Under the pieces are notes generated by a model that did not search any database, was not told the origin of the DNA, and saw only the letters and a program-made list of their open reading frames with translations. DNA of 26,026 nt from an uncultured Ktedonobacterales bacterium (GTDB taxonomy: Bacteria > Chloroflexota > Ktedonobacteria > Ktedonobacterales > JADMIN01). A program made the position numbers and the translations under genes. Positions within the stretch are counted from its first letter, which is position 1. Every line of letters begins with the position of its first letter. Shown piece after piece: positions 3,026-26,026 of the stretch. The DNA is taken from the NCBI GenBank assembly GCA_964416775.1, contig CAYQFU010000035.1, forward strand, positions 5,095 to 31,120. The letters run 5' to 3'.

Positions 3026-4924
3026 ATGGGAGCACCTGCGAGCGGTGGCGCGAAACGTGCGAGCGATGAGCCTTCCGCTATGAGCAGGAACCAGAGGGCT
3101 CGCCCGACGGCGAGCGAGAGCGATCCAGCCGATGGCGCAGGTGCCAGGCGTGAGCAGCTCAGGTGGCGGATGGCCACCAGCGCGCCGGTGGCGCTCTGGC
3201 CGCGTGCGTGGCTGTTGGATGCGTGGCGCAGGGTGCGGGAGATGCGCGTGCCGGGCGCGCTGAGCAATTTGCCGCCAGCGTATTCGGCTGCCCGGCGCTG
3301 GTCGCCGTTGATCTTCCCTGTGGCGCTGTGGGCGGCGCTGGTGCTGTTGGGAGTGTTCCTGGCCAGCCACAGGATGGGCCATGTGATCGTCACGTGGCCA
3401 CACGTGCGCGTCCTGGCGCTGCTGCTGCTGGGGCTGAGCGTGGCGTACGCGGTGGCGCTGCGCCTGGCGCCCAATGACGCGGCATGGGTGGGCGTGCTGA
3501 GTCTCGGGCTGGTGTTGGACCTGATGGCGTCCGCGTTCGTGCTCTTTGGGCCCGGGGCGGGGATCGTGGTCACGCTGGTGCTGGCGGCGGGAAGCGCGAC
3601 ATTCGTGCGGCAGCGGCTGCATCCTGTGCGGGAGGGGACGGTGCACGTGACGGCGCTGCCTGGCGCTGGGCATCGCACGCTGCCGCCGGGACTGAACGTG
3701 CTGCTGCCGGGCGAGCGCGTGCTGGCGATCCTGCCGGTTCAGCCGCGCGAGCACGCGACGCTGCCGCAGCGGCTGGCGACGCCGGCCGGAGAGGTGGCCG
3801 AGGCAGCGGCACGCGTGGAGTATCAGCTGATCCCTGAGCTGGCGGTGCGGGCGGTGGTGGCGACGCGCGATTGGGAGCGAGCCGTGCGCCAGCTGCTAGT
3901 GGCAGCCCTGCGGGCCGAGCTGGACGCCTGGCTGGCGGGAGAGCGCGGAGCGCGCGACGAGGCGGAGCGCGGGCTGAGCGACGTGGACCGGCTGCGCCTG
4001 CGTGTGGAGGAGCGGATGCGCGCGCAAGCGCTGCGCTGGGGCGTCCATATCCGCGGGGTGGAGCTGCGCGACGTGACACTGCCAGGCGCGCGGACCGCGG
4101 GCGGGGGTGCGGGCAGCGTGGGGCCGGAGCGCGTGGTGGAAGGCTCGCTGGCACGGGGCGCCGGCGCTGAGCGAGAGACGAACCAGGACGATGGACGCAG
4201 CCAGATGGGGCGGCCTGCCGCGGCGTTCAGGCCGCCGCCTGCGGCCGGGGCTGTCGCGCGCATGATGACGCAGCCGCTGCCACCAAACCAGGAGCCGGCG
4301 GCAGGTCCTGAGGCGCCATCCTGGGAGGGCGGCGGGCAGCCAGACGAGGCCCGGGGACCAGGCGTCACACGCGTGGCGGGCCGGGGCGACGCGACGGCGT
4401 GGTCGTCGCCGCCAGAGCGATGGCTGGGACGGATGGGCGCCTGGCTGCGTGAGAGCTGGGATCGGCTCGGCCAGCGTGCGGACCTGCCAGCGGACGCCGA
4501 GAGCGACGATGCGCTGGCGCAGGAAGGTCGTCAGGCGGGCGCGGGTTGGAGCGCCAGCCCGCGGGAGGACGAGCACCAGCCCGAGGAGGAGCCGCGCGCG
4601 CTCTCGCCCAGGATACTCGAGGCGATGTACGGTGCGGTGGAGGAGGGGCGCATCAGCGATCCCTTCACGGTGCGGCAGATCGCCAATAGCTTCGCCCAGC
4701 TCGCGGTCGCGGGCGATCCCGACGAGGAGATGACGCGCGACCCCCTCCAGGCGGCGGCCACACTAAGGCGCCGGGCGGAAGAGCTGGCTGCGCAACTCAG
4801 TCTCGATCAGGCCGATCCGCCAACCGCGAATGCCGCGCCGGGGCCGGGGACGCCGCCAGCGCCTGGGCGCCGTATGCCGCCGCCACGGCTTGCGCGCGAC
4901 GAGAACGTGATGCGCGGAGGGTGA
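3026..4924 (+). CDS. Polytopic membrane protein with a divergent SPFH/band-7 domain and a long acidic, Pro/Ala-rich disordered C-terminal tail. The start is uncertain; the alternative Met is at about 3167.
   Basis: Four to five hydrophobic helices (LIFPVALWAALVLLGVFLA; VLALLLLGLSVAYAVAL; VGVLSLGLVLDLMASAFVLFGPGAGIVVTLVLAAG). They are followed by an SPFH-like core ending in the family-typical …ALRWGVHIRGVELRDVTLPG motif (compare the second SPFH protein, …[19 protein letters not shown]). About 280 aa of low-complexity D/E/P/A/R-rich tail. Confidence 0.6.
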   Translation: MGAPASGGAKRASDEPSAMSRNQRARPTASESDPADGAGARREQLRWRMATSAPVALWPRAWLLDAWRRVREMRVPGALSNLPPAYSAARRWSPLIFPVALWAALVLLGVFLASHRMGHVIVTWPHVRVLALLLLGLSVAYAVALRLAPNDAAWVGVLSLGLVLDLMASAFVLFGPGAGIVVTLVLAAGSATFVRQRLHPVREGTVHVTALPGAGHRTLPPGLNVLLPGERVLAILPVQPREHATLPQRLATPAGEVAEAAARVEYQLIPELAVRAVVATRDWERAVRQLLVAALRAELDAWLAGERGARDEAERGLSDVDRLRLRVEERMRAQALRWGVHIRGVELRDVTLPGARTAGGGAGSVGPERVVEGSLARGAGAERETNQDDGRSQMGRPAAAFRPPPAAGAVARMMTQPLPPNQEPAAGPEAPSWEGGGQPDEARGPGVTRVAGRGDATAWSSPPERWLGRMGAWLRESWDRLGQRADLPADAESDDALAQEGRQAGAGWSASPREDEHQPEEEPRALSPRILEAMYGAVEEGRISDPFTVRQIANSFAQLAVAGDPDEEMTRDPLQAAATLRRRAEELAAQLSLDQADPPTANAAPGPGTPPAPGRRMPPPRLARDENVMRGG

Positions 4925-9900: not shown

Positions 9901-10035
9901 TACCCGCGGTGGAAGGGCAGGCCGATCGAAGGTGGATGCACAAGCGAGGGAAACCTACCCGCGTAGGCCCTGAAGATGCGGTGCGAGAGGTTGTCGCGCG
10001 ATGACAGACAGCGCGCGACGAAAGGCAGGCACCGC

Positions 10036-10866
10036 ATGACTGGGTTCTTGATCGGGCTAGGCGTTTTCATCGTCATCGTATTGCTGATCGCACTGAGCGG
10101 CGTGCGGGTGGTGAACCAGTACGAGCGCGGCGTGGTGTTCGTATTAGGGCGGCTGATCGGCCCGAAGGGGCCGGGCATATTCTACATTCCGCCCATCATC
10201 AGCCGTATGGTCAGGGTGGACCTGCGGGTCGTCACTATCGAGGTGGCGCCGCAGGAGGTGATCACGCGCGACAACGTGACCGTCAAGGTGAGCGCGGTGA
10301 TCTACTTCTACGTGGTGCACCCCAACGATGCCGTCAACCAGGTGGTGGACTTTCTGCGCTCGACGGTGCAGATCGCCCAGACCACACTGCGCAACGTGCT
10401 GGGCCAGTCGGAGCTAGACGAGCTGCTGGCGCAGCGCGAGACGATCAACCAGAAGCTGCAGACGATCATCGACGAGCACACCGGGCGCTGGGGTGTGAAG
10501 GTGACGGCCGTCGAGATCAAAGATGTGGAGCTGCCGCAGACGATGCAGCGCGCCATGGCGAAGCAGGCCGAGGCCGAGCGCGAGAAGCGCGCCAAGGTGT
10601 TGCATGCGCAGGGCGAGTTCCAGGCGGCGCAAACGCTGGCGGACGCGGCGGAGGTCATCGCCACGGAGCCAGCGGCATTGCAGCTGCGCTATCTGCAGAC
10701 GCTGACCGAGATCGCCGTCGAGAAGAACTCCACCATCATCTTCCCGCTGCCGCTGGACCTCATCGAGCCGCTGTTGACGCTGAGGCAGGAGCACCAGGAA
10801 GGCGTGGAGCGACGCGCGCGAAGCACCCTCCCGATCGCGGCACCGCCCACAAAGGGCGACGAGTGA
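10036..10866 (+). CDS. SPFH/band-7 protein (stomatin/prohibitin-like) with a single N-terminal TM helix.
   Basis: N-terminal TM ([17 protein letters not shown]), then [16 protein letters not shown]… and the canonical …[18 protein letters not shown] motif plus an [11 protein letters not shown] coiled-coil. Start set at ATG 10036, the first Met before the TM helix. The track ORF begins earlier, at 9976. Confidence 0.8.
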
Positions 10867-14495: not shown

Positions 14496-15677
14496 TCACC
14501 GGACGCCGAGCAGCAGCTCGACGGTGAGCTGGTCCAGCCGCTCGTACGCCAGCCCGCGCTGGCCCAGGGCTTTGCGGTCGAAGCTGGCGTCCTTGAGCGC
14601 GGCTGCTTTGGCGACGCTGTATGCGCCCTGGTAGGCGGCCGTGGCGCCGTCATCGGCCTGGATTTCGGCCAGCAGCGCCTGAATTTCGGCGTCCTGATGG
14701 AAGCGCTGGGCTTTCTCCTTCAGAATCAGGTAGGTGCGCATGCAGCCGCGAGCGAAGTCCTTGACGCCGTCGTAGTCCTCGGTGCGGTAGGCGTGGGCGT
14801 CGAAATGGCGGCTGCCGCTGTAGCCGACGTCTTCCAGCAGCTTGACGAGAAAGAAGGCGGTCTTGAGGCTGTGGGAGCCGAAGCGGAAGTCCTGGTCGTA
14901 GCGGCCGTACACCTGGTCGTTGAGGTCAATGTGGAAGAGCTTGCCGGCGTCCCATGCCTGGGCGACGGCGTGGACGAAGTTGAGGCCGGCCATGTGCTCG
15001 TGGGCCATTTCGGGGTTCACGCCGATCATCTCGGGGTGGTCGAGGGTGGCGATGAAGCCGAGCATGGCGCCGACGGTGGAGAGATAGATGTCGCCGCGCG
15101 GCTCGTTGGGCTTGGGCTCCAGGGCGAAGACGAGGTCGTAGTGCTGGTCGCGGACGTATGCGCTGAGGAAGTTGATGGCGTCGCGGAAGCGCTTGAGGCT
15201 GTCGCGGGGGTCTTTGGTGGCATCGGACTCGGTGCCTTCGCGACCGCCCCAGAAGACGTAGACTTTGGCGCCCAGCTCGACGCCGAGGTCAATGGCGCGC
15301 ATGGTCTTCTGCAGGGCATAGGCGCGGACGCGAGGATCGTTGGCGGTGAAGGCGCCGTCCTTGAAGGCGGGGTCGGTGAAGAGGTTGGTGGTGGCCATGG
15401 GGACGACGAGGCCGGTCTCGTCGAGGGCGGCTTTGAAGTCGCGGACGATGCGGTCGCGGTCGGCGGGGGTGGCGTCGATGGGGACGAGGTCGTTGTCATG
15501 GAAGTTGACGCCGTAGGCGCCGACCTCGGCGAGCAGATGGACGAGGGCGACGGGTGAGAGGGGCTGGCGCACTGGCTCGCCGAAGGGATCGCGGCCGATG
15601 TTGCCGACGGTCCAGAGGCCGAAGGTGAAGTGGTGCTCGGGTTTGGGCTGGTAGGTGGGCTGAGCGGCGGACGACAT
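14496..15677 (-). CDS. xylA: Xylose isomerase (class I, about 390-aa actinobacterial/Thermus type).
   Basis: …[25 protein letters not shown]… matches the conserved class I XylA N-terminus. FHDNDL, WGGREG and FEPKPNEP motifs. Start chosen at the Met of [14 protein letters not shown] (15677) with an AAGGA RBS upstream. The track ORF extends to 15725. Confidence 0.85.
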
Positions 15678-15698
15678 GGGGCATCCTTTCATCACAAA

Positions 15699-15728
15699 CC
15701 CATGAGAGGGCGCGGGGCGCCGCATGGG
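15699..15728. promoter_or_regulatory. Imperfect 30-bp palindrome / hairpin (cccatg-aga-gggcgc-gg-ggcgcc-g-catggg) immediately upstream of the xylA start. Candidate operator or 5'-UTR structure.
   Basis: Outer arms cccatg/catggg and inner arms gggcgc/ggcgcc, read directly in the sequence. It lies 22 nt upstream of the xylA ATG on the transcribed strand. Confidence 0.35.
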
Positions 15729-16027
15729 TCTGGTGTGGAACGCGTGGGGGTGCCTGGCCTCCCTCCGAGCTTTACACCGGCGAGAGGCGCGACGTCAAGG
15801 GAAGGGGCGGTGTAGCACCAGAGTATTGGGCATGAGCTGGTCAACCTGAATAGAGGGCGGCGCAAGAGAACGGTCGTTAAGTCTTGCAGAGGAATGGTAC
15901 AATTGTGCCGCAGCAATAAGGCATCTTGAGCGATTGCTCGCGCGTCGGGTGAGGCAATGTTTTGTTGTCTCGTTTTAGGGATGTACGATTTCTCATTGAC
16001 GCGTGCTGGCGTTTTGTTCGAGGAGTG

Positions 16028-16057
16028 CACGCGCGTGTATCGCGGCATGATATCATG
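16028..16057. promoter_or_regulatory. Two adjacent perfect palindromes (cacgcgcgtg at 16028-16037; catgatatcatg at 16046-16057) in the AT-richer region upstream of the giant helicase gene. Candidate regulator-binding sites.
   Basis: Both are exact reverse-complement palindromes, read directly in the sequence. They lie about 105-135 nt upstream of the ATG at 16164. A further 7-bp-stem hairpin ggacgcg-cctc-cgcgtcc sits at 16077-16094. Confidence 0.35.
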
Positions 16058-16163
16058 GGCGGCGGACCGATGTACAGGACGCGCCTCCGCGTCCCGTGAC
16101 GACCTATCACAGCACGAGTAGAACGAGTAGGATGCACGACTAAGCCAGGAAGTTGGGGGAACA

Positions 16164-19100
16164 ATGGCGCTGAGCACCAAGTTGCAACAGTGGCAAGCAT
16201 ATCTGCTCGACATGAGTAAGCGCAACAAACTGTTGTACTTCTCGTTGGACCGGCACCCTGGAATAGCGTTCCGCATCGATGTCCCGGCCATGCTGTATGG
16301 ACGCCTGACTACGAGCCGCAAGCCCATCAGCGTCTCTGATCTGCCGAACGATGCGGATCCGGACGAGCTCGACGAGAAACTGAACCGCCTGCGCACACGG
16401 GCGCGCGAAGCACTCAATGACCGCGGCACGAATATCCTCTTCCTCACGTTCGGTTTGCTAGAGTGGCGCGAGGCATCCAGTAGTGATGAGGTGATACGCT
16501 CGCCGCTCGTGCTGGTGCCCGTGCAGCTGCAGCGTGCGAGTATCGCCGCACCGTATCGGCTGCAACTGCTCGAAAATGAAGAGATCACGGTCAATCCCAC
16601 GCTGCGAGAGAAGCTGCGCCGTGACTTTGGAATCGAGCTGCCGGCGTCTCTCGAAGAGATGGATGATGACAGCGACACAGCGGGCGAGTCGAGCACGGAG
16701 AGGGCTGCAGCGCGCCTGGAGGCGACATTCGATGTGATTCGCCAGACAATACCACAGGAAGCGAAGAACTGGGCGGTCAAGCCGGCAGTGTATCTGAGCA
16801 TCTTCTCGTTCACAAAGCTAGTGATGTATCAGGACCTGGAAGACCATAAAGCGCTCGTGCTGAAGCATCCTGTGTTACGTTCCATCGGGGGAGAGTCGCG
16901 TTTGGCTGTGCGTGAGTCCAGCATGCGCGCAGAAGATCTGGACGACAAGCTGCGACCGCATGAAGTCGTTCAGGTGCTTGACGCCGACTCAAGCCAGCAG
17001 ATGGCGATCCAACGGGCTAAAGATGGGGCCAGCTTCGTGTTGCAAGGCCCACCAGGCACGGGGAAGAGCCAGACCATTGCGAATATCGTCGCGGAGTGTC
17101 TGGGGCAGGGCAAGCGCGTACTTTTCGTCAGCGAGAAGATGGCGGCGCTAGAGGTCGTGCAGCAGCGTCTGAAGGATGTCGGATTGGGAGACTACTGCCT
17201 GGACTTGCACAGTCACCGGTCAGACAAAAAGGTGTTGCTGGAGGAGTTGCGACAGTGCCTCGATGAGGCAGGCTCGCCGCGTCGGGCTAACGCCGCGGCT
17301 GATTGGGAACGCCAGTCGGGCAGACTGTTCGAATCCCGCCAGGAGCTCAATGGTTATGTGCGTGCGCTGCATGCGAAGCGCACGCGCCTGGAGCGTTCGG
17401 CATTCGAAATATACGGTGTGCTGGCGCGCCTGCACGACGTGCCCGACCTGGATTGCACGTTGCCCGATCCCATCACGATGACGCAGGCGCAGCTCGATGC
17501 TTTCGAACGCCTGCTAAGTGACTTTTTGACACGTGGTGACGTGCTCGTGGATCAGGCGGTCCATCCTTGGCGCGCGACGCGCCTGGAGACGTTTACCGAG
17601 GCAGTCGCAGCCAACATCAAGTCGCACTTTGAGCGATGCGCAGCACTGCTCAGGCAGACGCACGACGCTGTGAGCACGCTGGACAATGTTCTTGGCGGCG
17701 CCGACCTAGCGCATACGCAAGACGGCGCATTACGTGGACTTGCCCTTGCTGATGTGGCCGTGCGCACCCAGCTGCCTGAAGCGGCATGGCTCACGACGTC
17801 CGATCTGGCGGGGCTGCGACATTCAGCTGCGGAGACGGCGGCTCGGGCGGGAAGACATGAGGAACGCCATGCGCAGTTCACGAAGCTGTATGACCCACAG
17901 GCTATCGAGCTAGACCCTGAGCCCATCAGCGAGGCCCTGACGAGCGCAAGCGCCACTGCGATCGGCAGGTTGCAATGCGAAGGCACAGGGCCAATGGCGG
18001 ATCCACACGATGTCGCGTTGGCGTGTGCCGACGCGCTGGAGGAGCACCTGGTACATGCGGCGGAAGTGTTGGAGCGCATGACCATGGACGCTGCTCAGGT
18101 GGCGCAGATTCTGGAGCAGGTGGCGCCGACGACTCCGCAGGCGATCGCCGATCTGGCCGACCTTGCCGCGCATATCGTCGCCACTCCGCAGCCACCGCTG
18201 CGGTGGCTCAATCGCGATGAGTTCGCCGTCGCGCAGGTCGCCATGATAGACGCCGCGGAACGCTACAGGCGCGTGAGTTTGGTAGGCACAGAGCTGATGA
18301 GACGCTATCAGCCGTCAATGCTTCAGCTCAACCTCAAGCTGCTGGACGATCAGTTCAGCACCCGTTATCGGTCCATGTTACGGATTGTACATCCCGGATT
18401 CTGGCGGCAGATTCAAGATGCCAGGGCATGCCTGCAACCAAAGGTGAACCGCACAGCCAGGGAGATCGTCGCTGATGTGCATCAGGCGCGGGCGTTGGTA
18501 GACGAAGAGTCGTTCTTGCGTGATCAGCGCGTGGTCCACGCGAGTGCGCTGGGTACACACTTCGCGGCCCATCAGACAAATTGGGCGGCAGTCCATAGTG
18601 GGTTGGCATGGACCGGTCAACTACATCAACTCCTCAGTGGAGAGCGGCCGAACCAGCGGATGGAAGCGCTCATCACGGGCAATACGAGCAAGCTGCAGCC
18701 ACTGCGCGCGAGATTGCAGCGGCTGCATGCGAGCGTAGAGGAATGGCGCGCGGAGCAAGCTTACCTGGAGGATACTCTGCTTCTCGACGAGCTGCCGGGC
18801 GACGCGTTCACGCTTGACGAAGCCGATGCGGGGGCGCTGCGCGAGTGGCTGCTGGCACTGGTAGACATGCTACGCCCGTACTGGGCGGCGGCGCGCACGC
18901 TGGCGAGCCTACGCCCAACGTTGCCGGAGTTAGCAGCAAGGCGGTGGGCTGAACTGCTGGACGACATCCGATTGATTCGTGAACTGCGGGCGTCTCGTGC
19001 ATGGTTCCAGGCGCATGAGAGTCAATTGCGCGAGACACTCGGTTCGTTCTACGACGGACTAGAGACGGACTGGACCGCGATAAATCAGGCGTTGGCCTGG

Positions 19101-21479
19101 TGTGACGAGCTACGGAGCACCTGGGGCGGCAAACCCATACCGGCGTCGTTGGTCATCGTGCTCTCCCGTGAAGGCGACGAGCGAGCCCGCATGAAATTAA
19201 TGGCGGCACGCGATCAGACTCGACACCTGATGGAGTCGCTGCGGGCGGAGTGGGCGTTCTACGAAACGGTATTGCCACTAGAGGCGCTGGCACCGGCAGA
19301 CGGCACGCCATTCGCCGCTACCCCACTCACGGAACTGGCCGACCGGCTCATGATACTGGTGCATGAGCTGCCCAGGCTGGAGCAGTGGACTGACTTCAGG
19401 CGTTACTGGAAAGCGTGTGAATTGAACGGACTGGGCTCGTTCGTCGACGCGGTCACACGGCAGATTCCCGTACCGACCAATCTACTGGACCTATTCCATA
19501 AGCGGCTCTACCAACTCTGGTTGGATGCGATATATCGCGACGTGCCCGTGCTGGGGCGTTTTCGCGGCACGACGCATGAGCAGACGATCGAGCGCTTCCG
19601 GCAATTGGACGAAGAGCATATCGCACTGGCGCGCAAGCGTCTTGCCGCGTCGCTCGCAACCATGCGAACGTCCGCCATCGCAAGTGCCGCGTCCACTGAT
19701 GACGGCGAGTGGCGTGCTACCGGCGCAGGGCCCGCAGCGGGGACATTCAGTAGGCAGCTGAGTTATCTGAGGCGCGAGATTGGCAAGAAGCGACACCCCT
19801 CCATCAGGCAGATCATCCAGTCGGCCGGGCTGGCAGTCGTGGCACTGAAGCCGTGCTGGATGATGAGTCCATTGAGCGCCAGCCAGTTTGTCGTGCCGGG
19901 GGCGGTAGAGTTCGACCTCGTGGTGTTCGATGAAGCGTCACAGATCTGTCCCGAAGACGCGATCTGTTCGATTCTGCGCGGCAAGCAACTGATCGTGGTT
20001 GGCGATCCCAAGCAGTTGCCGCCTACGCGCTTCTTTGCCAAGAGTGTCAGCGATAGCATCACCGAAGATGGCGACATCGAGGAAGAGCTCTTCGAGAGTA
20101 TTCTGGATGAGTGCTCACCGGTCATGCCGGCTTACTCGCTGCTGTGGCACTACCGCAGCCAACACGAGTCTCTCATCGCGTTCTCGAATCACCACTTCTA
20201 TGACGATCGACTGTACACCTTCCCAGGTCCGCAGACGGAGCATAGAGAAGGTGTGGGCTTCGAATATGTTGAGAATGGACAATACGATCGCAGTCGGTCG
20301 CGCACAAATCCAATCGAGGCCGCGCGTGTGGCAGATCTGGTGATAGAACATTTCGACTGGCATCCGGAGCGTTCCCTGGGCGTGGTGGCGTTGAGCGAAG
20401 CGCAGCAGAGCGCGATTGACCACGAGCTGGCGTTGCGCCGGCGCAGCCGGCCGGATTTGGAATCGTTCTTTGACGAGAACGCGTTGAGCCCATTCTTTGT
20501 GAAGAACCTGGAAAGCGTCCAAGGCGACGAGCGAGACGTAATCATCCTCAGCGTCGGCTACGGGAAGGACGCGACGGGCCGCCTCTACCAGAACTTCGGT
20601 CCGATCAATGGCGCGGGCGGCGGCCGCCGGTTGAACGTGGCCGTCACCCGAGCCAGGCATCAGGTAATTGTCGTGAGCTCGATACGCGCCGATGAGCTCA
20701 ATGTTTCTAGCGCACGGAGCAGCGGCGCACGACTCTTGCACGCCTATCTCGACTATGCCGAGCACGGGCCGCGGACGCTTGGGGAACAAGGGCCGGTCGT
20801 CACGGAGGGGGATGACGCCACGCCGACCTTCGATTCCCCCTTCGAGGAGGACGTGTATCAGGCACTGGTTGCGTGCGGCTTGACAGTCGCAACGCAGGTG
20901 GGCTGTTCAGGTTACCGCATTGACCTGGCTATTCGCGATCCGCACCGGCCGGATCGCTACGTGCTGGGCGTGGAGTGCGATGGGGCTACGTACCACTCGT
21001 CGCATACGGCACGCGACCGCGACCGATTGCGCCAGCAGCACCTGGAGCGCCTGGGATGGCAGATCCATCGCATATGGTCGCGCGATTGGATACGGGATCG
21101 AGAGCATGAGATCCAGAAGGTGATGGACCGGCTGGCCATGCTGCGCGAGCAGTCGCCTGCGCCGGTCGCTGCTCTGAAAAGTGCGCTTACACCGGCGACT
21201 CCACCGGCACGCACGACCGGCACGTCGACGGCAGCTCAGCCTGTGCGGTTGACCAGCGTCGCTCCAGCATACACCCCACCGCCGCGAGCGGCAGAATCAG
21301 TGCCTGTGCAGGCGCTCAACACAGGTACGCACACGTGCGAAACGTGCACACATTTCATGGCAAAGACCTCGACGGCATTCTTGTGCCTGCATGATGCCAC
21401 TATTAAGCGGCGTGACCCCAATGGGCAGACGCCAGGCTGCCCTGGATGGAAGCGCCTTCAGGCACGTGCGACGCAGTAG
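16164..21479 (+). CDS. Giant (1771 aa) multidomain protein: an N-terminal DUF4011-like region, a Upf1/DNA2-like SF1 helicase core with a very long insertion between Walker A and Walker B, a C-terminal Vsr/DUF559-like PD-(D/E)xK endonuclease domain, a Pro/Thr linker and a Cys-rich tail. Hhe-like single-gene defence candidate.
   Basis: GAAGTTGGGGG RBS-like purine run before the ATG. DUF4011-like LFLTFGLLEW…SPLVLVPVQLQR…NPTLREKL. Walker A VLQGPPGTGKSQTIANIV (about aa 295). DEAS box LVVFDEASQ (about aa 1256), then QLIVVGDPKQLPPT (motif III), …WHYRSQHESLIAFSN (motif IV-like), and GRRLNVAVTRARHQVIVVSS (motif VI). Vsr-like GYRIDLAIRD…YVLGVECDGATYHSS…RLGWQIHRIWSRDWIRDREHEI. The gene has markedly more A/T-ending codons than its neighbours. 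Confidence 0.85.
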   Translation: MALSTKLQQWQAYLLDMSKRNKLLYFSLDRHPGIAFRIDVPAMLYGRLTTSRKPISVSDLPNDADPDELDEKLNRLRTRAREALNDRGTNILFLTFGLLEWREASSSDEVIRSPLVLVPVQLQRASIAAPYRLQLLENEEITVNPTLREKLRRDFGIELPASLEEMDDDSDTAGESSTERAAARLEATFDVIRQTIPQEAKNWAVKPAVYLSIFSFTKLVMYQDLEDHKALVLKHPVLRSIGGESRLAVRESSMRAEDLDDKLRPHEVVQVLDADSSQQMAIQRAKDGASFVLQGPPGTGKSQTIANIVAECLGQGKRVLFVSEKMAALEVVQQRLKDVGLGDYCLDLHSHRSDKKVLLEELRQCLDEAGSPRRANAAADWERQSGRLFESRQELNGYVRALHAKRTRLERSAFEIYGVLARLHDVPDLDCTLPDPITMTQAQLDAFERLLSDFLTRGDVLVDQAVHPWRATRLETFTEAVAANIKSHFERCAALLRQTHDAVSTLDNVLGGADLAHTQDGALRGLALADVAVRTQLPEAAWLTTSDLAGLRHSAAETAARAGRHEERHAQFTKLYDPQAIELDPEPISEALTSASATAIGRLQCEGTGPMADPHDVALACADALEEHLVHAAEVLERMTMDAAQVAQILEQVAPTTPQAIADLADLAAHIVATPQPPLRWLNRDEFAVAQVAMIDAAERYRRVSLVGTELMRRYQPSMLQLNLKLLDDQFSTRYRSMLRIVHPGFWRQIQDARACLQPKVNRTAREIVADVHQARALVDEESFLRDQRVVHASALGTHFAAHQTNWAAVHSGLAWTGQLHQLLSGERPNQRMEALITGNTSKLQPLRARLQRLHASVEEWRAEQAYLEDTLLLDELPGDAFTLDEADAGALREWLLALVDMLRPYWAAARTLASLRPTLPELAARRWAELLDDIRLIRELRASRAWFQAHESQLRETLGSFYDGLETDWTAINQALAWCDELRSTWGGKPIPASLVIVLSREGDERARMKLMAARDQTRHLMESLRAEWAFYETVLPLEALAPADGTPFAATPLTELADRLMILVHELPRLEQWTDFRRYWKACELNGLGSFVDAVTRQIPVPTNLLDLFHKRLYQLWLDAIYRDVPVLGRFRGTTHEQTIERFRQLDEEHIALARKRLAASLATMRTSAIASAASTDDGEWRATGAGPAAGTFSRQLSYLRREIGKKRHPSIRQIIQSAGLAVVALKPCWMMSPLSASQFVVPGAVEFDLVVFDEASQICPEDAICSILRGKQLIVVGDPKQLPPTRFFAKSVSDSITEDGDIEEELFESILDECSPVMPAYSLLWHYRSQHESLIAFSNHHFYDDRLYTFPGPQTEHREGVGFEYVENGQYDRSRSRTNPIEAARVADLVIEHFDWHPERSLGVVALSEAQQSAIDHELALRRRSRPDLESFFDENALSPFFVKNLESVQGDERDVIILSVGYGKDATGRLYQNFGPINGAGGGRRLNVAVTRARHQVIVVSSIRADELNVSSARSSGARLLHAYLDYAEHGPRTLGEQGPVVTEGDDATPTFDSPFEEDVYQALVACGLTVATQVGCSGYRIDLAIRDPHRPDRYVLGVECDGATYHSSHTARDRDRLRQQHLERLGWQIHRIWSRDWIRDREHEIQKVMDRLAMLREQSPAPVAALKSALTPATPPARTTGTSTAAQPVRLTSVAPAYTPPPRAAESVPVQALNTGTHTCETCTHFMAKTSTAFLCLHDATIKRRDPNGQTPGCPGWKRLQARATQ

Positions 21480-21602
21480 CTAACGCGGTGCACCAGCACT
21501 GCATACGAGGCCACGTGCGAGAACGATTCTACCTGGCGGGCGCGGCGATTGGCGCAAGCGGATCGTCGCGGATGTGTGGGAAGTCCGCGTGCCTGAAAAG
21601 GC

Positions 21603-21626
21603 GGCCCTGGCGAGATTGCCAGGGCC
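21603..21626. terminator. GC-rich hairpin (ggccctgg - cgagattg - ccagggcc) in the convergent intergenic region between the helicase and adh. Possible factor-independent terminator, though it lacks a clear U-tract.
   Basis: Perfect 8-bp inverted repeat with an 8-nt loop, read directly in the sequence. It lies about 125 nt after the helicase stop and about 155 nt after the adh stop on the opposite strand. Confidence 0.3.
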
Positions 21627-21780
21627 GTGCAGATAGGTGCCGTAGTACACACGCGGAAAGTGTCAGAGCCTGTTATGCCCGCTGGGGCATGCGCATTGGG
21701 TGCCCTGACCCCAAGGGGTGGAGCAAGCCAGCGGCTGCGCATCAGCTATGACGAGTCAGCCGCTCTGCGCGCTCGGTGGG

Positions 21781-22980
21781 TTATGGCCTTGTCGTCTGCT
21801 GCGTTGCCTGTTGCATCGCCTGCTGCTCGTACTGTTGCCAGTTCGGCATGGGGTGGAGGATGACCTTGGTGTAGCCCTCGATCCGCTTGTCGAACTTCTC
21901 GTACGCTGTGGGCGCTTGCTCGATCGGCAACTCGTGCGAGACGACGAAGCTGGGCTTGGCGCGGCCGGCGATGATCATGTCGCGCAAGAAGCGGTTGTAC
22001 TGGGACACATTGCACTGGCCAGTGCCCAGCGCGAGTCCCTTTTCGAAGAGCTTGCCAAAGGGGATGAGCAGGTTGCCCTGCTTGGCTTGAGGATCCGGAG
22101 AGCCTGGATCGGTTGGGACGTATAGGCCAGGAATGCCCAGGACGCCCGTGGGGTTGACGACCTGGATCAAGGCCGAGAGCACCACGTTGGGGACTTCCTG
22201 CGCTTTGGCCGGGTCAACAGCCTGATAGCCGACGGCATCGATGCCTTTGCTGACCCCGTTGCCTTTACGCATGTCTCGGATCTGTTGAACAGGATCGCCT
22301 TTGCTGAAGTCGATGGGGATGGCGCCGATATCCTTGGCTTTGTTCAGCCGCTCGGGCACTCTGTCCACCACATAGACTTCGGAGGCACCACGGAGCAGCG
22401 CGCTGTACGCGGCCATCAGCCCGACAGGGCCCGCCCCAAAGATCGCCACAGACTCGCCGGGCGTCAGGCGGGCTAGCTCTGTGCCGTGGTAACCGGTGGG
22501 GAAGATATCGGCCAGGAGGATGAAATCTTCCTCGTGCTCGGTGCCCGGCGGCAGTTTCAGCGCATTGAAGTCGGCGAACGGGACGCGCAGCAACTCGGCC
22601 TGACCGCCCCTGTACGGGCCCATGGCGACGTACCCATATGCGCCGCCGGCGAAGCCTGGATTGACCGTCAGGCAGTACCCCGTATACCCACGCTTGCAGT
22701 TCTCACAGAAGCCGCAGGCGATGTTGAAGGGCATCACCACACGATCGCCCTTCTTGAGGCTCACGACTCCTGGGCCAATCTCCTCGACAATGCCCATGTT
22801 CTCGTGGCCGAAGACAAGGCCGGGTTGGGCGGCCGTGCGGCCCTCGTACATGTGCAGATCGGACCCGCAGATGGCTGTGGACGTGATCCGGACAATCACA
22901 TCACTGGGGTGCTCGATCTTGGGATCGGGCACGTTCTCGACGTCAACTTTGAATGGCCCCTTGTAGACGACGGCTTTCAT
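21781..22980 (-). CDS. fdhA: Zinc-dependent alcohol dehydrogenase (MDR family) of the glutathione-independent formaldehyde dehydrogenase type.
   Basis: MKAVVYKGPFKVDVENVPDPKIEHPSDVIVRITSTAICGSDLHMYEG…GHENMG (catalytic Zn ligands Cys, His). Structural-Zn Cys cluster CGFCENCKRGYTGYC. Rossmann motif AIFGAGPVG. Length about 399 aa, matching FdhA-type enzymes. Confidence 0.8.
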   Translation of the reverse strand: MKAVVYKGPFKVDVENVPDPKIEHPSDVIVRITSTAICGSDLHMYEGRTAAQPGLVFGHENMGIVEEIGPGVVSLKKGDRVVMPFNIACGFCENCKRGYTGYCLTVNPGFAGGAYGYVAMGPYRGGQAELLRVPFADFNALKLPPGTEHEEDFILLADIFPTGYHGTELARLTPGESVAIFGAGPVGLMAAYSALLRGASEVYVVDRVPERLNKAKDIGAIPIDFSKGDPVQQIRDMRKGNGVSKGIDAVGYQAVDPAKAQEVPNVVLSALIQVVNPTGVLGIPGLYVPTDPGSPDPQAKQGNLLIPFGKLFEKGLALGTGQCNVSQYNRFLRDMIIAGRAKPSFVVSHELPIEQAPTAYEKFDKRIEGYTKVILHPMPNWQQYEQQAMQQATQQTTRP

Positions 22981-23646
22981 CTGCTCTCCTCCTGAGAGTC
23001 TCGATGGCTGTGGAGCAGCGCTCTCGGGCTACCGCGAGCGCATGCTCGGCCAGCCTGGGGGCACGCGACACCATTGACGCTTGCTCTGTGGACGCACTAC
23101 GTCTCCGCACGGGCCGTCCGCGGGCGCCAAACAGCGAACACCTTCGCGCAGGCGTGGGCGTGTGCCGCAGATGGTATGCCACGAGCAGCCAACCGAACCC
23201 TGTCATGTAGGTGCGCCAGGCTGCCTCAGCGCGGCCGTCGCGAGCCATAGAGCCCCAGCGCGCCAAGTCAGGCGGAGGCGCGCTGGGTGCGGCTTCAGGG
23301 CCCAGCGCACCTTTCGGACGCTGAGCCCGGCGGCACAGGCCAGATCCACCGGGCGCGCAGAGCGCCAGCCTATTTCACGTCCAACATTCAACTCCAATTG
23401 GAGGATTTGCCCGTTCCCGTGCGCGCTTCCGAGCGACCGCTGGGTGTGAGAAATGAGCGCCTCATCGCTCGCTACACCTATACCCGCGAGGTGAGATGCC
23501 GCTCCGCTCGGGCGTAGCCCTGGCGCCGCGATCCGCGGTTATCAGCACGAACCCTCAAACTTTGCATCGGTGTCCTACGCTGGAATCGTACCGGGTCGAG
23601 AGCGTGCGCACGCGATGTCCGTAAAATGCGGAACGGAGGCATTGGC

Positions 23647-24087
23647 ATGCCCGGCTTTATCCCCTGGAGCAAGATAGACCTGCCGCTACGTGCCACCCGC
23701 TCGATCTGGGTCGCGACGACCCGCCCAGATGGGCGCCCGCATGCCGTTCCCGTGTGGTATGTCTGGGACGGTACCAGCCTGTACTTCATCACGCGCCGCG
23801 ACATGCAAAAGGCGACGAATCTGGCCGCCCAGCCCTGGATCGTCGCACACCTCGGCGACGGCGATGACGTGGCGATCCTCGAAGGCTCCGTCGAAGTCGT
23901 CTCCGATCCCAGCGAGCTCAGCCGCATAGACGCCTTGTACGGCGAGAAGTACGTCGCCCCGCGCAGCGGCGCCCGCGACACGATCTTCCACGACCACGCG
24001 AACCTCTATCGCCTGCTCGTGCGCCACGTCATGGCCTGGGAATATGGCGACATCTCCACGCGCACCGACTGGCGCTTCGATCCGTAG
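23647..24087 (+). CDS. Pyridoxamine 5'-phosphate oxidase-fold (PPOX-class / split-barrel flavin or F420-binding) protein.
   Basis: …IWVATTRPDGRPHAVPVWYVWDGTSLYFITRRD…QPWIVAHLGDGDDVAILEGSVEVV is the typical PNPOx-like split-barrel pattern. Start set at the ATG at 23647, which has a GGAGG RBS at a 7-nt spacing. The track ORF starts at 23626. Confidence 0.7.
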   Translation: MPGFIPWSKIDLPLRATRSIWVATTRPDGRPHAVPVWYVWDGTSLYFITRRDMQKATNLAAQPWIVAHLGDGDDVAILEGSVEVVSDPSELSRIDALYGEKYVAPRSGARDTIFHDHANLYRLLVRHVMAWEYGDISTRTDWRFDP

Positions 24088-24145
24088 CCTCAGGACCCGG
24101 CCATTACCCTTGCCTCACGCAGCCATCCACCATGGGAGCGCAACT

Positions 24146-25165
24146 ATGGAACTCAATCAGGCTCCGCACCATGATGTCATCGCCGCGGCCCTCTGCCGGC
24201 TCGGTCGCGACCCGGCCGGTCTCGCCGGCTTTCGGGTCCTGGCGGGTGGCATTTCTGGCTCCGCGGTCTACGCTCTGCGGTGGGCTGGCGAAGATCTCGT
24301 GCTCAAGACGACATTGCCAGGCAGCCCTGACGGCGTAGTCGCCCGCGCTCGCCATGAAGCGCTCTACTACGAGCAGCTGGCCGTCCACATCCCCCTGCGC
24401 GTCCCGGATGTGCGCGCCCTGGCGAACGACGCATGCGGCGTCGCCATCCTGTTGCCCGCTTACCTGCCGCCTCTCCCCGTGGAGCGGTGGACCGAGGAAG
24501 CCAGCCTGATCGTCGCCTCGCAGCTGGCAAGCCTCCACAGCGCCTTTTGGGGTGACACGGCAAGCCGGCTCGGCATGTCCTGGCTGCGCCGGAGACGCCC
24601 CCTCCCGCTGGCGCTCCGGCGCGAGCGCGCTGCGTCTCGCTGGAACGAGCTCGTCCATCCTGAGTCCCGCTCGGGTGTCCTGAGTGCGTCGCACCTGCGG
24701 GCGGTCTGGGCTGGCCTGGACCGGCTGGAGGAGCTCGCCGCCGCTCTGCGCGAGCTGCCCCTGACGCTGTGCCATGGCGACTGCCACCGTGAGAACCTGC
24801 TGCGCACGCCCGACGACCAGCTCGTCTGGGCCGACTGGCAAGAGGTCCATCGGGGTCGGGGGGTCGTGGACCTCGTATTCTTCTGCGAGCGGGCGCTCTT
24901 CGACGGCGCCACGTTCCCTTACGAGCACATGCTCCAGGTCTATTGTGATCGGTTGGCCGAGCGCGCCGGTCGCAACTTTCGGCTTGCCACCCTCCAGCGC
25001 GCCGCCGCCAGCGCCGAGCTGCTTTCCTGGCTGCTCGACTGGCCGCCGTTCCTGCTGCGGGCATCCCCCGCCGAACTCGTCCGCGTCCTCGATCGCATCC
25101 AGGTGATCTGCCTCATGCTGGATTCTCTGCCGCGCTGCCGCGCCATTGGGTCCATCAGCGAGTAG
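24146..25165 (+). CDS. Phosphotransferase-enzyme-family kinase (APH / choline-kinase fold).
   Basis: Brenner-type catalytic loop LCHGDCHRENLLR and downstream WADWQEV…GVVDLVFF (Mg-binding D). ATP-binding-region Lys (VLKTTL). Start chosen at the Met of MELNQ, which has a GGGAG RBS at a 7-nt spacing. The track ORF begins at 24044 and overlaps the previous gene. Confidence 0.7.
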   Translation: MELNQAPHHDVIAAALCRLGRDPAGLAGFRVLAGGISGSAVYALRWAGEDLVLKTTLPGSPDGVVARARHEALYYEQLAVHIPLRVPDVRALANDACGVAILLPAYLPPLPVERWTEEASLIVASQLASLHSAFWGDTASRLGMSWLRRRRPLPLALRRERAASRWNELVHPESRSGVLSASHLRAVWAGLDRLEELAAALRELPLTLCHGDCHRENLLRTPDDQLVWADWQEVHRGRGVVDLVFFCERALFDGATFPYEHMLQVYCDRLAERAGRNFRLATLQRAAASAELLSWLLDWPPFLLRASPAELVRVLDRIQVICLMLDSLPRCRAIGSISE

Positions 25166-25296
25166 AATATCTGTAATGCCTGCGAGGGCCAGCGCGCAAG
25201 TGGTGCATGCTTGTGGTCAGAAGCTGTGGCATAAGGGACGCAGTATTCACCTGTCGAGAGGCAGACTTGATCAATGGTCCGGTGTGACGGGAGAAA

Positions 25297-25962
25297 GTGA
25301 TCTTGATCGTGGATCAGTTAGAAGTCGCGGCGAAGGCTGAGCCGCCACTGCGCGATGAAATTATCCGCACGTTGGCTGATGCAGCAAGGCAAACCCCTGG
25401 CGTCTATCAGGAGCTTTTCACTGTGCTCGTCCGCGACAAGGAGCTGGCGGATGTCGCCACGATGGTGGTTAGAGCAATCGGATACCCACAGAATGCGACG
25501 GCCATCCCGGCGCTGATTTACTACGTTTGCGATGCAAATGCTCCCGCCGCGCCCGACGCCCTGGATGCACTGCGCGATATCCCTGCGAATGTGGTCGTGC
25601 CATACATCGTTGAAATGCTCTGGGATCGGGGAGCAACCAACAAATGGTGGAGCAAAGACGTGCAAGGGCTTGCCTATGCATTGCGGCAACTGGGAACGGA
25701 GTATGCACTTCCTTGCGCACCCGTGATCGCCTACTTGCTCAGTGATCCAAAGTTGCGGGCCATAGTCTATGTGCCGGCGTTGCTGGAGGTCATCGAAGCG
25801 ATCGGGCCGCAGAACGCTACTTTTGCGTTGCCGGCGGTGCTCGACATCGTCGAACAGCATGGCGCAAGCGAGGTGAGAGCATGTGCGAGGCGGCTGGTGG
25901 AGTCGTTCGCCGAGCACACGCTCGCTGTATACCACAGAGTTATGCCGCCCGCCAATTCTTGA
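25297..25962 (+). CDS. Hypothetical all-alpha protein, possibly HEAT/ARM-like repeats. GTG start, lower G+C than the core genes.
   Basis: 221-aa ORF with a repetitive helical pattern (…IPALIYYVCD…, …VVPYIVEMLWD…, …VIAYLLSD…, …LPAVLDIVEQ…). GGGAG sits 3 nt upstream of the GTG. It has more A/T third positions than the upstream genes. Confidence 0.45.
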   Translation: MILIVDQLEVAAKAEPPLRDEIIRTLADAARQTPGVYQELFTVLVRDKELADVATMVVRAIGYPQNATAIPALIYYVCDANAPAAPDALDALRDIPANVVVPYIVEMLWDRGATNKWWSKDVQGLAYALRQLGTEYALPCAPVIAYLLSDPKLRAIVYVPALLEVIEAIGPQNATFALPAVLDIVEQHGASEVRACARRLVESFAEHTLAVYHRVMPPANS

Positions 25963-26026
25963 TTTGTAGCCTTTCTACGGGTATGTCAATTGCCTTCGCC
26001 CACCTCAGCTTGCATGGGTATGCTGA

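Follow-up and report, generated by a model that had tools for sequence, protein, structure and literature searches.

A stretch of 26,026 bp from contig CAYQFU010000035.1 of an uncultured Ktedonobacterales bacterium (this whole stretch is referred to below as the window) carries a gene encoding a long helicase-nuclease, whose codon usage sets it apart from almost all of its neighbours and which was likely acquired by horizontal transfer. This gene, hereafter the helicase gene, is located as follows.

16164 to 21479, + strand: helicase-nuclease gene, 1771 aa, with DUF4011, an Upf1-like superfamily 1 (SF1) helicase and a Vsr-like nuclease

Horizontal acquisition is the best explanation for the gene because it shows a deficit of G+C at third codon positions (GC3) which is no general bias of its family, because its nearest homologue is a compositional islet at another locus, and because distant relatives lie beside integrases. 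The initial annotation had proposed recent horizontal acquisition of a single-gene cassette. While a horizontal origin is likely, the cassette is unproven since it has no borders, and neither the recency nor the route of acquisition is demonstrated, there being no near-identical donor and the dinucleotides being host-like. Such a transfer would be ordinary for a defence gene.

Composition of the helicase gene and its surroundings

The mean G+C content of the window is 66.5% over its 26,026 bp and 67.9% without the helicase gene, which is lower than the background of roughly 70% given by the initial annotation, and it varies between 0.56 and 0.77 in 500-bp sliding windows. We compared the helicase gene with the 17 other genes of the window, defined from open reading frames (ORFs) and from Pfam or NCBIfam matches. 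The GC3 of these genes averages 0.834 (standard deviation 0.059), with 16 of the 17 at 0.78-0.90; their codons, said to end "almost exclusively" in G or C, actually do so in 80-90% of cases. The helicase gene, which has a G+C content of 0.612, has a GC3 of only 0.709. From its amino-acid composition, and with the other genes pooled as the reference for codon usage, a value of 0.844 would be expected; the deficit of 0.135 over 1770 codons corresponds to a binomial z of -16. This is approximately twice the largest deviation seen in 16 of the 17 other genes. The other genes remain within about +/-0.07 of their expected GC3, the sole exception being a HEAT-like gene (25423-25962, + strand) with a GC3 of 0.674 against an expected 0.843 (deviation -0.169, z = -6.3), which exceeds the helicase gene in this respect. 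The compositional anomaly first noticed is thus borne out, the helicase gene falling outside the distribution of the 17 other genes of this one 26-kb window save for the HEAT-like gene, but it is narrower than first described, and the helicase gene is not the only outlier.

The low GC3 is spread along the helicase gene. Windows of 100 codons give values of 0.62-0.77 throughout, with a single window at 0.84, and the first 60 nt of the ORF, previously counted at about 53% G+C, measure 53.3%. When codon fractions are compared with those of the other genes, TTG (0.20 vs 0.07), AGT (0.18 vs 0.04), CAA (0.23 vs 0.12) and TAT (0.44 vs 0.25) are enriched, as are GCA, ATA, AAT and CAT. Among the A/T-ending codons originally listed, all are therefore enriched except AAA (0.21 vs 0.24 in the other genes).

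Total G+C content would have been a poor guide here, because several host genes are low in G+C through their amino-acid content. The gene for an ANTAR regulator, for example, has a G+C content of 0.625 and a GC3 of 0.861, while a band-7 gene has values of 0.643 and 0.892. Similarly, the stretches at 1.5-2.75 kb and 8.5-10.75 kb have a total G+C content of 0.62-0.66, yet a GC3 of 0.80-0.89. The adh gene next to the helicase gene has a G+C content of 0.615 with a GC3 of about 0.795, which is within the host range; its low total results from amino-acid content, i.e., from the first and second codon positions (GC1 and GC2, the latter being 0.415). We have therefore relied on GC3 conditioned on amino acids. 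By this measure the islet is exactly one gene, together with the AT-richer divergent promoter region ahead of it, and GC3 alone defines it. The immediate surroundings of the gene are as follows.

14496 to 15725, - strand: xylA, xylose isomerase (TIGR02631, 591.9 bits against a cut-off of 447), with a host-typical GC3 of 0.895
15726 to 16163, no strand: divergent spacer between xylA (-) and the helicase gene (+), 438 bp, 57.8% G+C, the lowest among the larger intergenic regions
21480 to 21780, no strand: convergent spacer between the helicase gene and adh, 301 bp, 65.1% G+C (ordinary), with strong hairpins
21781 to 22980, - strand: adh, Zn-dependent alcohol/formaldehyde dehydrogenase-like (Pfam ADH_N and ADH_zinc_N)

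Since xylA is divergent and adh convergent, the helicase gene is monocistronic and stands alone. A GGGGGA ribosome-binding site lies 8 nt ahead of its ATG. Both spacers had been described as AT-richer than typical intergenic DNA of the window, which holds for the upstream but not for the downstream one, intergenic regions ranging from 0.54 to 0.81. A promoter and terminator scan of the divergent spacer (15726-16163) gave no excess over shuffled expectation. This spacer contains two palindromes, one imperfect (15896-15909, GGTACAATTGTGCC) and one perfect (16046-16057, CATGATATCATG), which are possible operator sites, e.g., for xylose regulation. In the convergent spacer, the RNA fold of 21480-21700 has an energy of -106.1 kcal/mol (z = -3.5 against shuffles), and a hairpin with an 11-bp stem and no T-tract at 21602-21627 may act as a bidirectional terminator. 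Neither spacer contains a plausible small ORF. An antisense ORF at 15692-16813 was rejected as non-coding, because its codon-position profile is atypical (GC1 0.476 < GC2 0.610 < GC3 0.676) and its translation is rich in Ser and Arg. As for adh, it scores 348.9 bits against TIGR02819, below the cut-off of 637.

Elsewhere in the window, two genes of the SPFH/band-7 family lie within 3026-4924 and 9976-10866, one of them unusually long (632 aa), with genes for an Nramp transporter and a CHAD-domain protein near them; these are unrelated to the helicase gene. Between adh and a PNPOx-like gene, a 645-bp stretch (22981-23625) has no called gene either in the window or in the conspecific contig L082, and has no Rfam match; the conspecific contig L083 shows five clustered differences there, at 23213-23257.

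Homologues, host relatives and conspecific contigs

Low G+C content is not a general property of this family. A metagenome scan with a single protein as query found nothing, and a scan with an alignment (A1) as query gave 80 loci of more distant homologues. From these and three contigs with close homologues, we took as a control set the 50 loci that had 4 kb or more of flanking sequence. As GC3 of the flanks obtained by greedy ORF calling was noisy in high-GC loci, total G+C content was used for this comparison, and called genes were used for the three close homologues listed below. The difference between gene and flanks has a median of +0.005 over the 50 loci and is negative in 42% of them. 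In the 20 hosts above 60% G+C, it averages -0.002, and 60% of the genes are at or above their flanks. For the helicase gene of the window the difference is -0.067, as negative a value being found at only 3 of the 50 loci (the lowest 6%). Because homologues are not depleted in G+C relative to their own flanks, neither the length nor the function of such a gene generally lowers its G+C content. The close homologues compared by GC3 are the following.

Contig L087, 329 to 5599 (P0002): 58% identity, GC3 0.572 against 0.78-0.85 in its neighbours, a stronger islet than in the window; beside genes for an HMA-domain protein and a PrsW protease
Contig L089 (P0005): 45% identity, GC3 0.852 against 0.82-0.89 in its neighbours, host-like
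Contig L173, from a Ktedonobacterales metagenome-assembled genome (P0008): 43% identity, GC3 0.772 against 0.66-0.80 in its neighbours, host-like

We examined the neighbourhoods of five close homologues, all of which differ from each other and from the window, and none of which contains mobility genes. More distant copies of the family were found on predicted viral or integrative contigs. Two such loci are L175 7481-15055 and L176 8867-21870; one copy adjoins a tyrosine integrase and a D5-type primase, and the other sits inside a lambdoid prophage, together with a lambda-type integrase, DUF968 and a DnaT-like protein.

The host itself has few known relatives. A scan of GTDB with xylA retrieved 80 loci, and xylA is at most 83% identical to that of any species representative, the best matches all being Chloroflexota. 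This identifies the host as a high-GC member of the Chloroflexota without a sampled close relative. The best matches of xylA and xylB are scattered over several classes of this phylum. The two genes form a conserved pair, most of the 80 loci having xylB adjacent to xylA or close by, but no synteny extends beyond them, and the loci that reach upstream of xylA have neither a helicase nor an adh orthologue there. A search with adh returned an identical protein, then nothing between 83% and 100%, and mostly Ktedonobacteria. The named relatives nearest to adh (77-83%) all belong to the Ktedonobacteria (Thermogemmatispora and Ktedonobacter), and so do those nearest to the helicase. Two adh orthologues at 79-83% (L171 and L172) are found in contexts unrelated to the window, one of them beside an IS200-type transposase, and at the loci of P0022 and P0198 helicase and adh homologues are not within 10 kb of each other. 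Beyond conspecifics, the nearest sampled relatives (at most 83% for both xylA and adh) are too distant for an empty-site comparison.

Conspecific contigs come from two series of run accessions, SRR31070035 with SRR31070048, and SRR12266071-74. Six metagenome contigs are 99.1-100% identical to, and colinear with, positions 15336-26026 of the window. One (L086) spans xylA, the helicase gene and its 3' spacer, three (L081, L083 and L084) contain the helicase gene and adh, and another (L085) starts in the 3' spacer. We infer that the helicase gene has become fixed in the population sampled, or is at least common there.

Comparison of 16164-22980 with L081, L083, L085 and L086 reveals different patterns of variation in the two genes. 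The helicase gene has 13 nonsynonymous and 8 synonymous differences, with a ratio of nonsynonymous to synonymous polymorphism (pN/pS) of 0.53 and no frameshifts or stops, while adh has no nonsynonymous and 12 synonymous differences (Fisher p = 5e-4). In the helicase, the majority of amino-acid polymorphisms lie within the first 200 aa or within the insertion that separates Walker A from Walker B. Synonymous diversity is about seven-fold lower in the helicase gene than in adh (0.006 vs 0.042), a contrast to be read with the caveat that the adh differences are clustered and sampling is uneven. L081 and L083, the two contigs covering both genes, show 3 synonymous differences in the helicase gene and 10 in adh, or about ten-fold by a per-site estimate. 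The low synonymous diversity of the helicase gene fits, as a hint, a recent sweep or introgression. The clusters in adh (22255-22288, 22633/22636 and 22969/22972) suggest recombination tracts.

Domain architecture and relation to anti-phage proteins

The product of the helicase gene, for which an exact look-up returned no record, is composed of the following parts.

16203 to 16616, + strand: N-terminal DUF4011 (aa 14-151; PF13195, E = 6.9e-28, 98.1 bits against a cut-off of 22.2)
17046 to 17069, + strand: Walker A motif GPPGTGKS (aa 295-302), identified in the translation, invariant in 25 of 25 aligned members
17214 to 19763, + strand: insertion between Walker A and Walker B, approximately 850-900 aa, with no recognisable domain
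19905 to 20681, + strand: second part of the helicase core (aa 1248-1506; PF13086 AAA_11 and PF13087 AAA_12)
20841 to 21134, + strand: Vsr-like PD-(D/E)xK nuclease (aa 1560-1657; PF18741 MTES_1575)
21336 to 21449, + strand: C-terminal four-cysteine module, C1725-x2-C1728-x12-C1741-x17-C1759-x2-W1762 (aa 1725-1762)

The helicase core is split. Its P-loop region matches Pfam AAA_30/AAA_19 (aa 276-336), and the large insertion that follows matched no Pfam family at E<=0.1. The second part contains the motifs DEASQ (Walker B/motif II, aa 1256-1260), QGDERD (aa 1453-1458) and RRLNVAVTRAR (aa 1488-1498), all residues of which, except V1494 and R1498, are invariant in an alignment of the protein with 24 relatives (n = 25). 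The nearest solved structures to the core are those of IGHMBP2, Upf1 and Sen1, with E values of about 1e-10. The nuclease matches the PF18741 profile over its entire length (positions 1-96 of 96, E = 2.4e-38, 130.5 bits against a cut-off of 38.2), and its residues D1587, E1604 and D1606 are invariant columns of the same alignment. The C-terminal module, which is preceded by a Pro/Ala/Thr-rich linker and probably binds zinc, is kept in about 16 of the 25 members. This tail has no significant Pfam match, a RING-like score being weak (16.6 bits against a cut-off of 50). DUF3320 (PF11784), which is present in more distant homologues from P0058 onwards, has no match in the protein.

Judging by sequence similarity, the protein belongs to the family of Hhe, ProA and PDC-S37, i.e., stand-alone helicase-nucleases related to anti-phage proteins. 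The best of 12 PADLOC matches is PDC-S37 (1388.6 bits, E = 0; no curated cut-off is shown for this model), followed by Hhe (661.8 bits, E = 5.5e-199) and, more weakly, by Mokosh helicases. The best NCBIfam match is ProA (NF058533, "anti-phage protein ProA"), with 1277.4 bits against a curated cut-off of 1500, and the model for "DUF4011 domain-containing anti-phage protein Hhe" (NF042953) gives 947.4 bits, under half of its cut-off of 2000. A literature search found no source paper for either ProA or PDC-S37. Both of these models match the protein in four stretches along its length. However, the ProA match stops at profile position 1731 of 1903, about 170 positions short, which is consistent with a missing C-terminal domain. 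With Hhe (HheA), the protein shares the order of its parts in one stand-alone gene, DUF4011 being followed by a split Upf1-like SF1 helicase and a Vsr-like/MTES_1575 nuclease, but the Hhe model matches in only two to three stretches, the best-scoring of which covers just aa 1055-1666. In addition, relatives of the Hhe/ProA type carry DUF3320 at their C terminus, where the protein of the window, whose host is a member of the Chloroflexota, has the four-cysteine tail. This CxxC...C...C-x2-W module may be a different sensor or regulatory domain.

There is also a resemblance to CnuH of Type III-B CoCoNuT, an Upf1-like SF1 helicase with a large helical insertion after Walker A and a fused Vsr-like PD-(D/E)xK nuclease (PMC11090510), since the protein has a comparably large insertion after Walker A and a fused Vsr-like nuclease. 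CoCoNuT systems are, however, defined by the McrB/McrC-type partners CnuB and CnuC, plus CnuA in type III-B (PMC11090510), whereas the helicase gene is flanked by xylA and adh and no gene of the window has an McrBC-type domain.

The closest relatives of the protein, about 20 in number, are mostly Ktedonobacteria-type and unnamed Chloroflexota sequences. We raise only tentatively the idea that, together with the protein of the window, they form a distinct, uncharacterised branch of the DUF4011 helicase-nuclease defence family, without DUF3320, that is now moving between high-GC Chloroflexota. The two closest sampled members of such a branch, that of the window and P0002, are low-GC3 islets at different loci.

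Origin of the gene

Several observations weigh against horizontal acquisition of a defence gene. The background consists of 17 genes of one 26-kb window, and the HEAT-like gene among them deviates more than the helicase gene. The distances in dinucleotide signature between the helicase gene and segments of the host (56-66) fall among those separating host segments from one another (47-77). A close donor is lacking, the next match after the conspecific copy (99%) being that at 58%. The gene is colinear in 5 of 5 contigs of at least 99.5% identity that overlap it, with no empty site seen, and a divergent promoter region would be AT-rich whether or not transfer had taken place. The window contains no tRNA, none of its genes has an integrase or transposase domain, and flanking direct or inverted repeats are at chance level only, in agreement with the initial annotation, which had reported no integrase, tRNA or obvious direct repeats at the borders. 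Hence no insertion mechanism is visible, and the "cassette" is one without defined borders. No Rfam family was found in the window either. In P. aeruginosa, a defence hotspot is flanked by a DUF4011 gene that belongs to the conserved core (PMC10250203), which means that such genes are not always mobile and can be stable residents. As for function, the protein falls short of the curated cut-offs set for the two named anti-phage equivalogs, ProA and Hhe, and PDC-S37 is, as we understand it, only a candidate system. The anti-phage function of this subfamily is thus putative, by analogy with Hhe.

The main alternative is a native, long-resident gene, very long and rarely used, whose GC3 is low because of weak expression and relaxed selection, or of less GC-biased gene conversion. 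Such an origin, which we consider unlikely, is in keeping with the host-like dinucleotide signature, with the lack of mobility marks at the locus, with the presence of the gene in every conspecific contig overlapping it, with the resident DUF4011 gene of P. aeruginosa (PMC10250203), and with the fact that the closest named relatives of the helicase belong to the same phylum. The pN/pS of 0.53, compared with 0 of 12 nonsynonymous differences in adh, likewise suggests relaxed or diversifying constraint. However, the homologues of 20 other high-GC hosts show no depletion in G+C, and P0005 and P0008 match the GC3 of their hosts, which shows that length or function alone does not lower GC3. Moreover, the nearest homologue is a low-GC3 islet at a different locus, which is hard to explain without movement, and the position of the gene is not conserved in any relative.

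Less likely still is that the helicase gene belongs to a larger segment, acquired or variable, which extends rightwards through adh to the HEAT-like gene or past the end of the window. Total G+C content does remain low (0.61-0.64) from 15.75 to about 23.0 kb, through adh, and drops again to 0.57-0.60 at 25.0-26.0 kb, where the HEAT-like gene is preceded by a spacer (25166-25296) of 54% G+C. The HEAT-like gene may represent a further acquisition, or the margin of a variable region past the end of the window, and adh orthologues occur in unrelated contexts, including the one next to an IS200-type transposase. Yet the genes that separate the two GC3 outliers, adh, PNPOx (GC3 0.842) and APH (0.822), are all in the host range, and the low total G+C content of adh comes from GC1 and GC2. 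With approximately 4 kb of host-like genes between them, the two outliers look like separate events. Finally, that there is no real feature, merely sampling noise in a heterogeneous high-GC window (0.56-0.77, with the stretches at 1.5-2.75 and 8.5-10.75 kb as low as 0.62-0.66), is refuted by the GC3 statistics, since those stretches hold a GC3 of 0.80-0.89 and the deficit of the helicase gene amounts to 16 binomial standard errors, leaving this the most improbable reading by far.

Under horizontal acquisition, the gene would have entered a high-GC Chloroflexota lineage from a source of lower GC3, probably another member of the Chloroflexota, and would have been only partly ameliorated towards host composition since, with no trace left of the vehicle or of the insertion mechanism. 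As in a classical genomic or defence island, codon usage is atypical, the cargo is a defence-type gene and the neighbourhoods of homologues differ. In contrast to such an island, there is a single gene here, with no integrase, tRNA target or direct repeats and no defence genes next to it.

How the protein might work can be proposed by analogy with Hhe, which combines helicase and nuclease domains in one gene (preprint 10.1101/2024.10.10.617714). The candidate triggers of Hhe are a cluster of DNA-metabolism genes in T7 and one gene (g40) in Bas63, and its authors argue for a response to the activities of these triggers rather than to the trigger proteins themselves (preprint 10.1101/2024.10.10.617714). 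By the same logic, the protein would be expressed on its own, from the AT-richer promoter region of the divergent spacer, and activated by consequences of phage DNA metabolism such as replication or recombination intermediates. ATP-driven translocation on nucleic acid would then deliver the fused PD-(D/E)xK nuclease to its substrate, with the four-cysteine module, probably zinc-binding, in place of the DUF3320 of Hhe and ProA.

Although modest, these results have methodological implications. GC3, rather than total G+C content, distinguishes foreign genes from genes that are low in G+C through their amino-acid content. When close relatives are missing, the flanks of each homologue can serve as its control, and an AT-rich divergent promoter region is no evidence of transfer. 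As for the organism, a poorly sampled high-GC member of the Chloroflexota, it carries a solitary defence-type gene amid genes of sugar metabolism, without the scaffold of a mobile element. For the family, the gene draws attention to a subfamily of Hhe/ProA-like helicase-nucleases that have a four-cysteine module instead of the C-terminal DUF3320.

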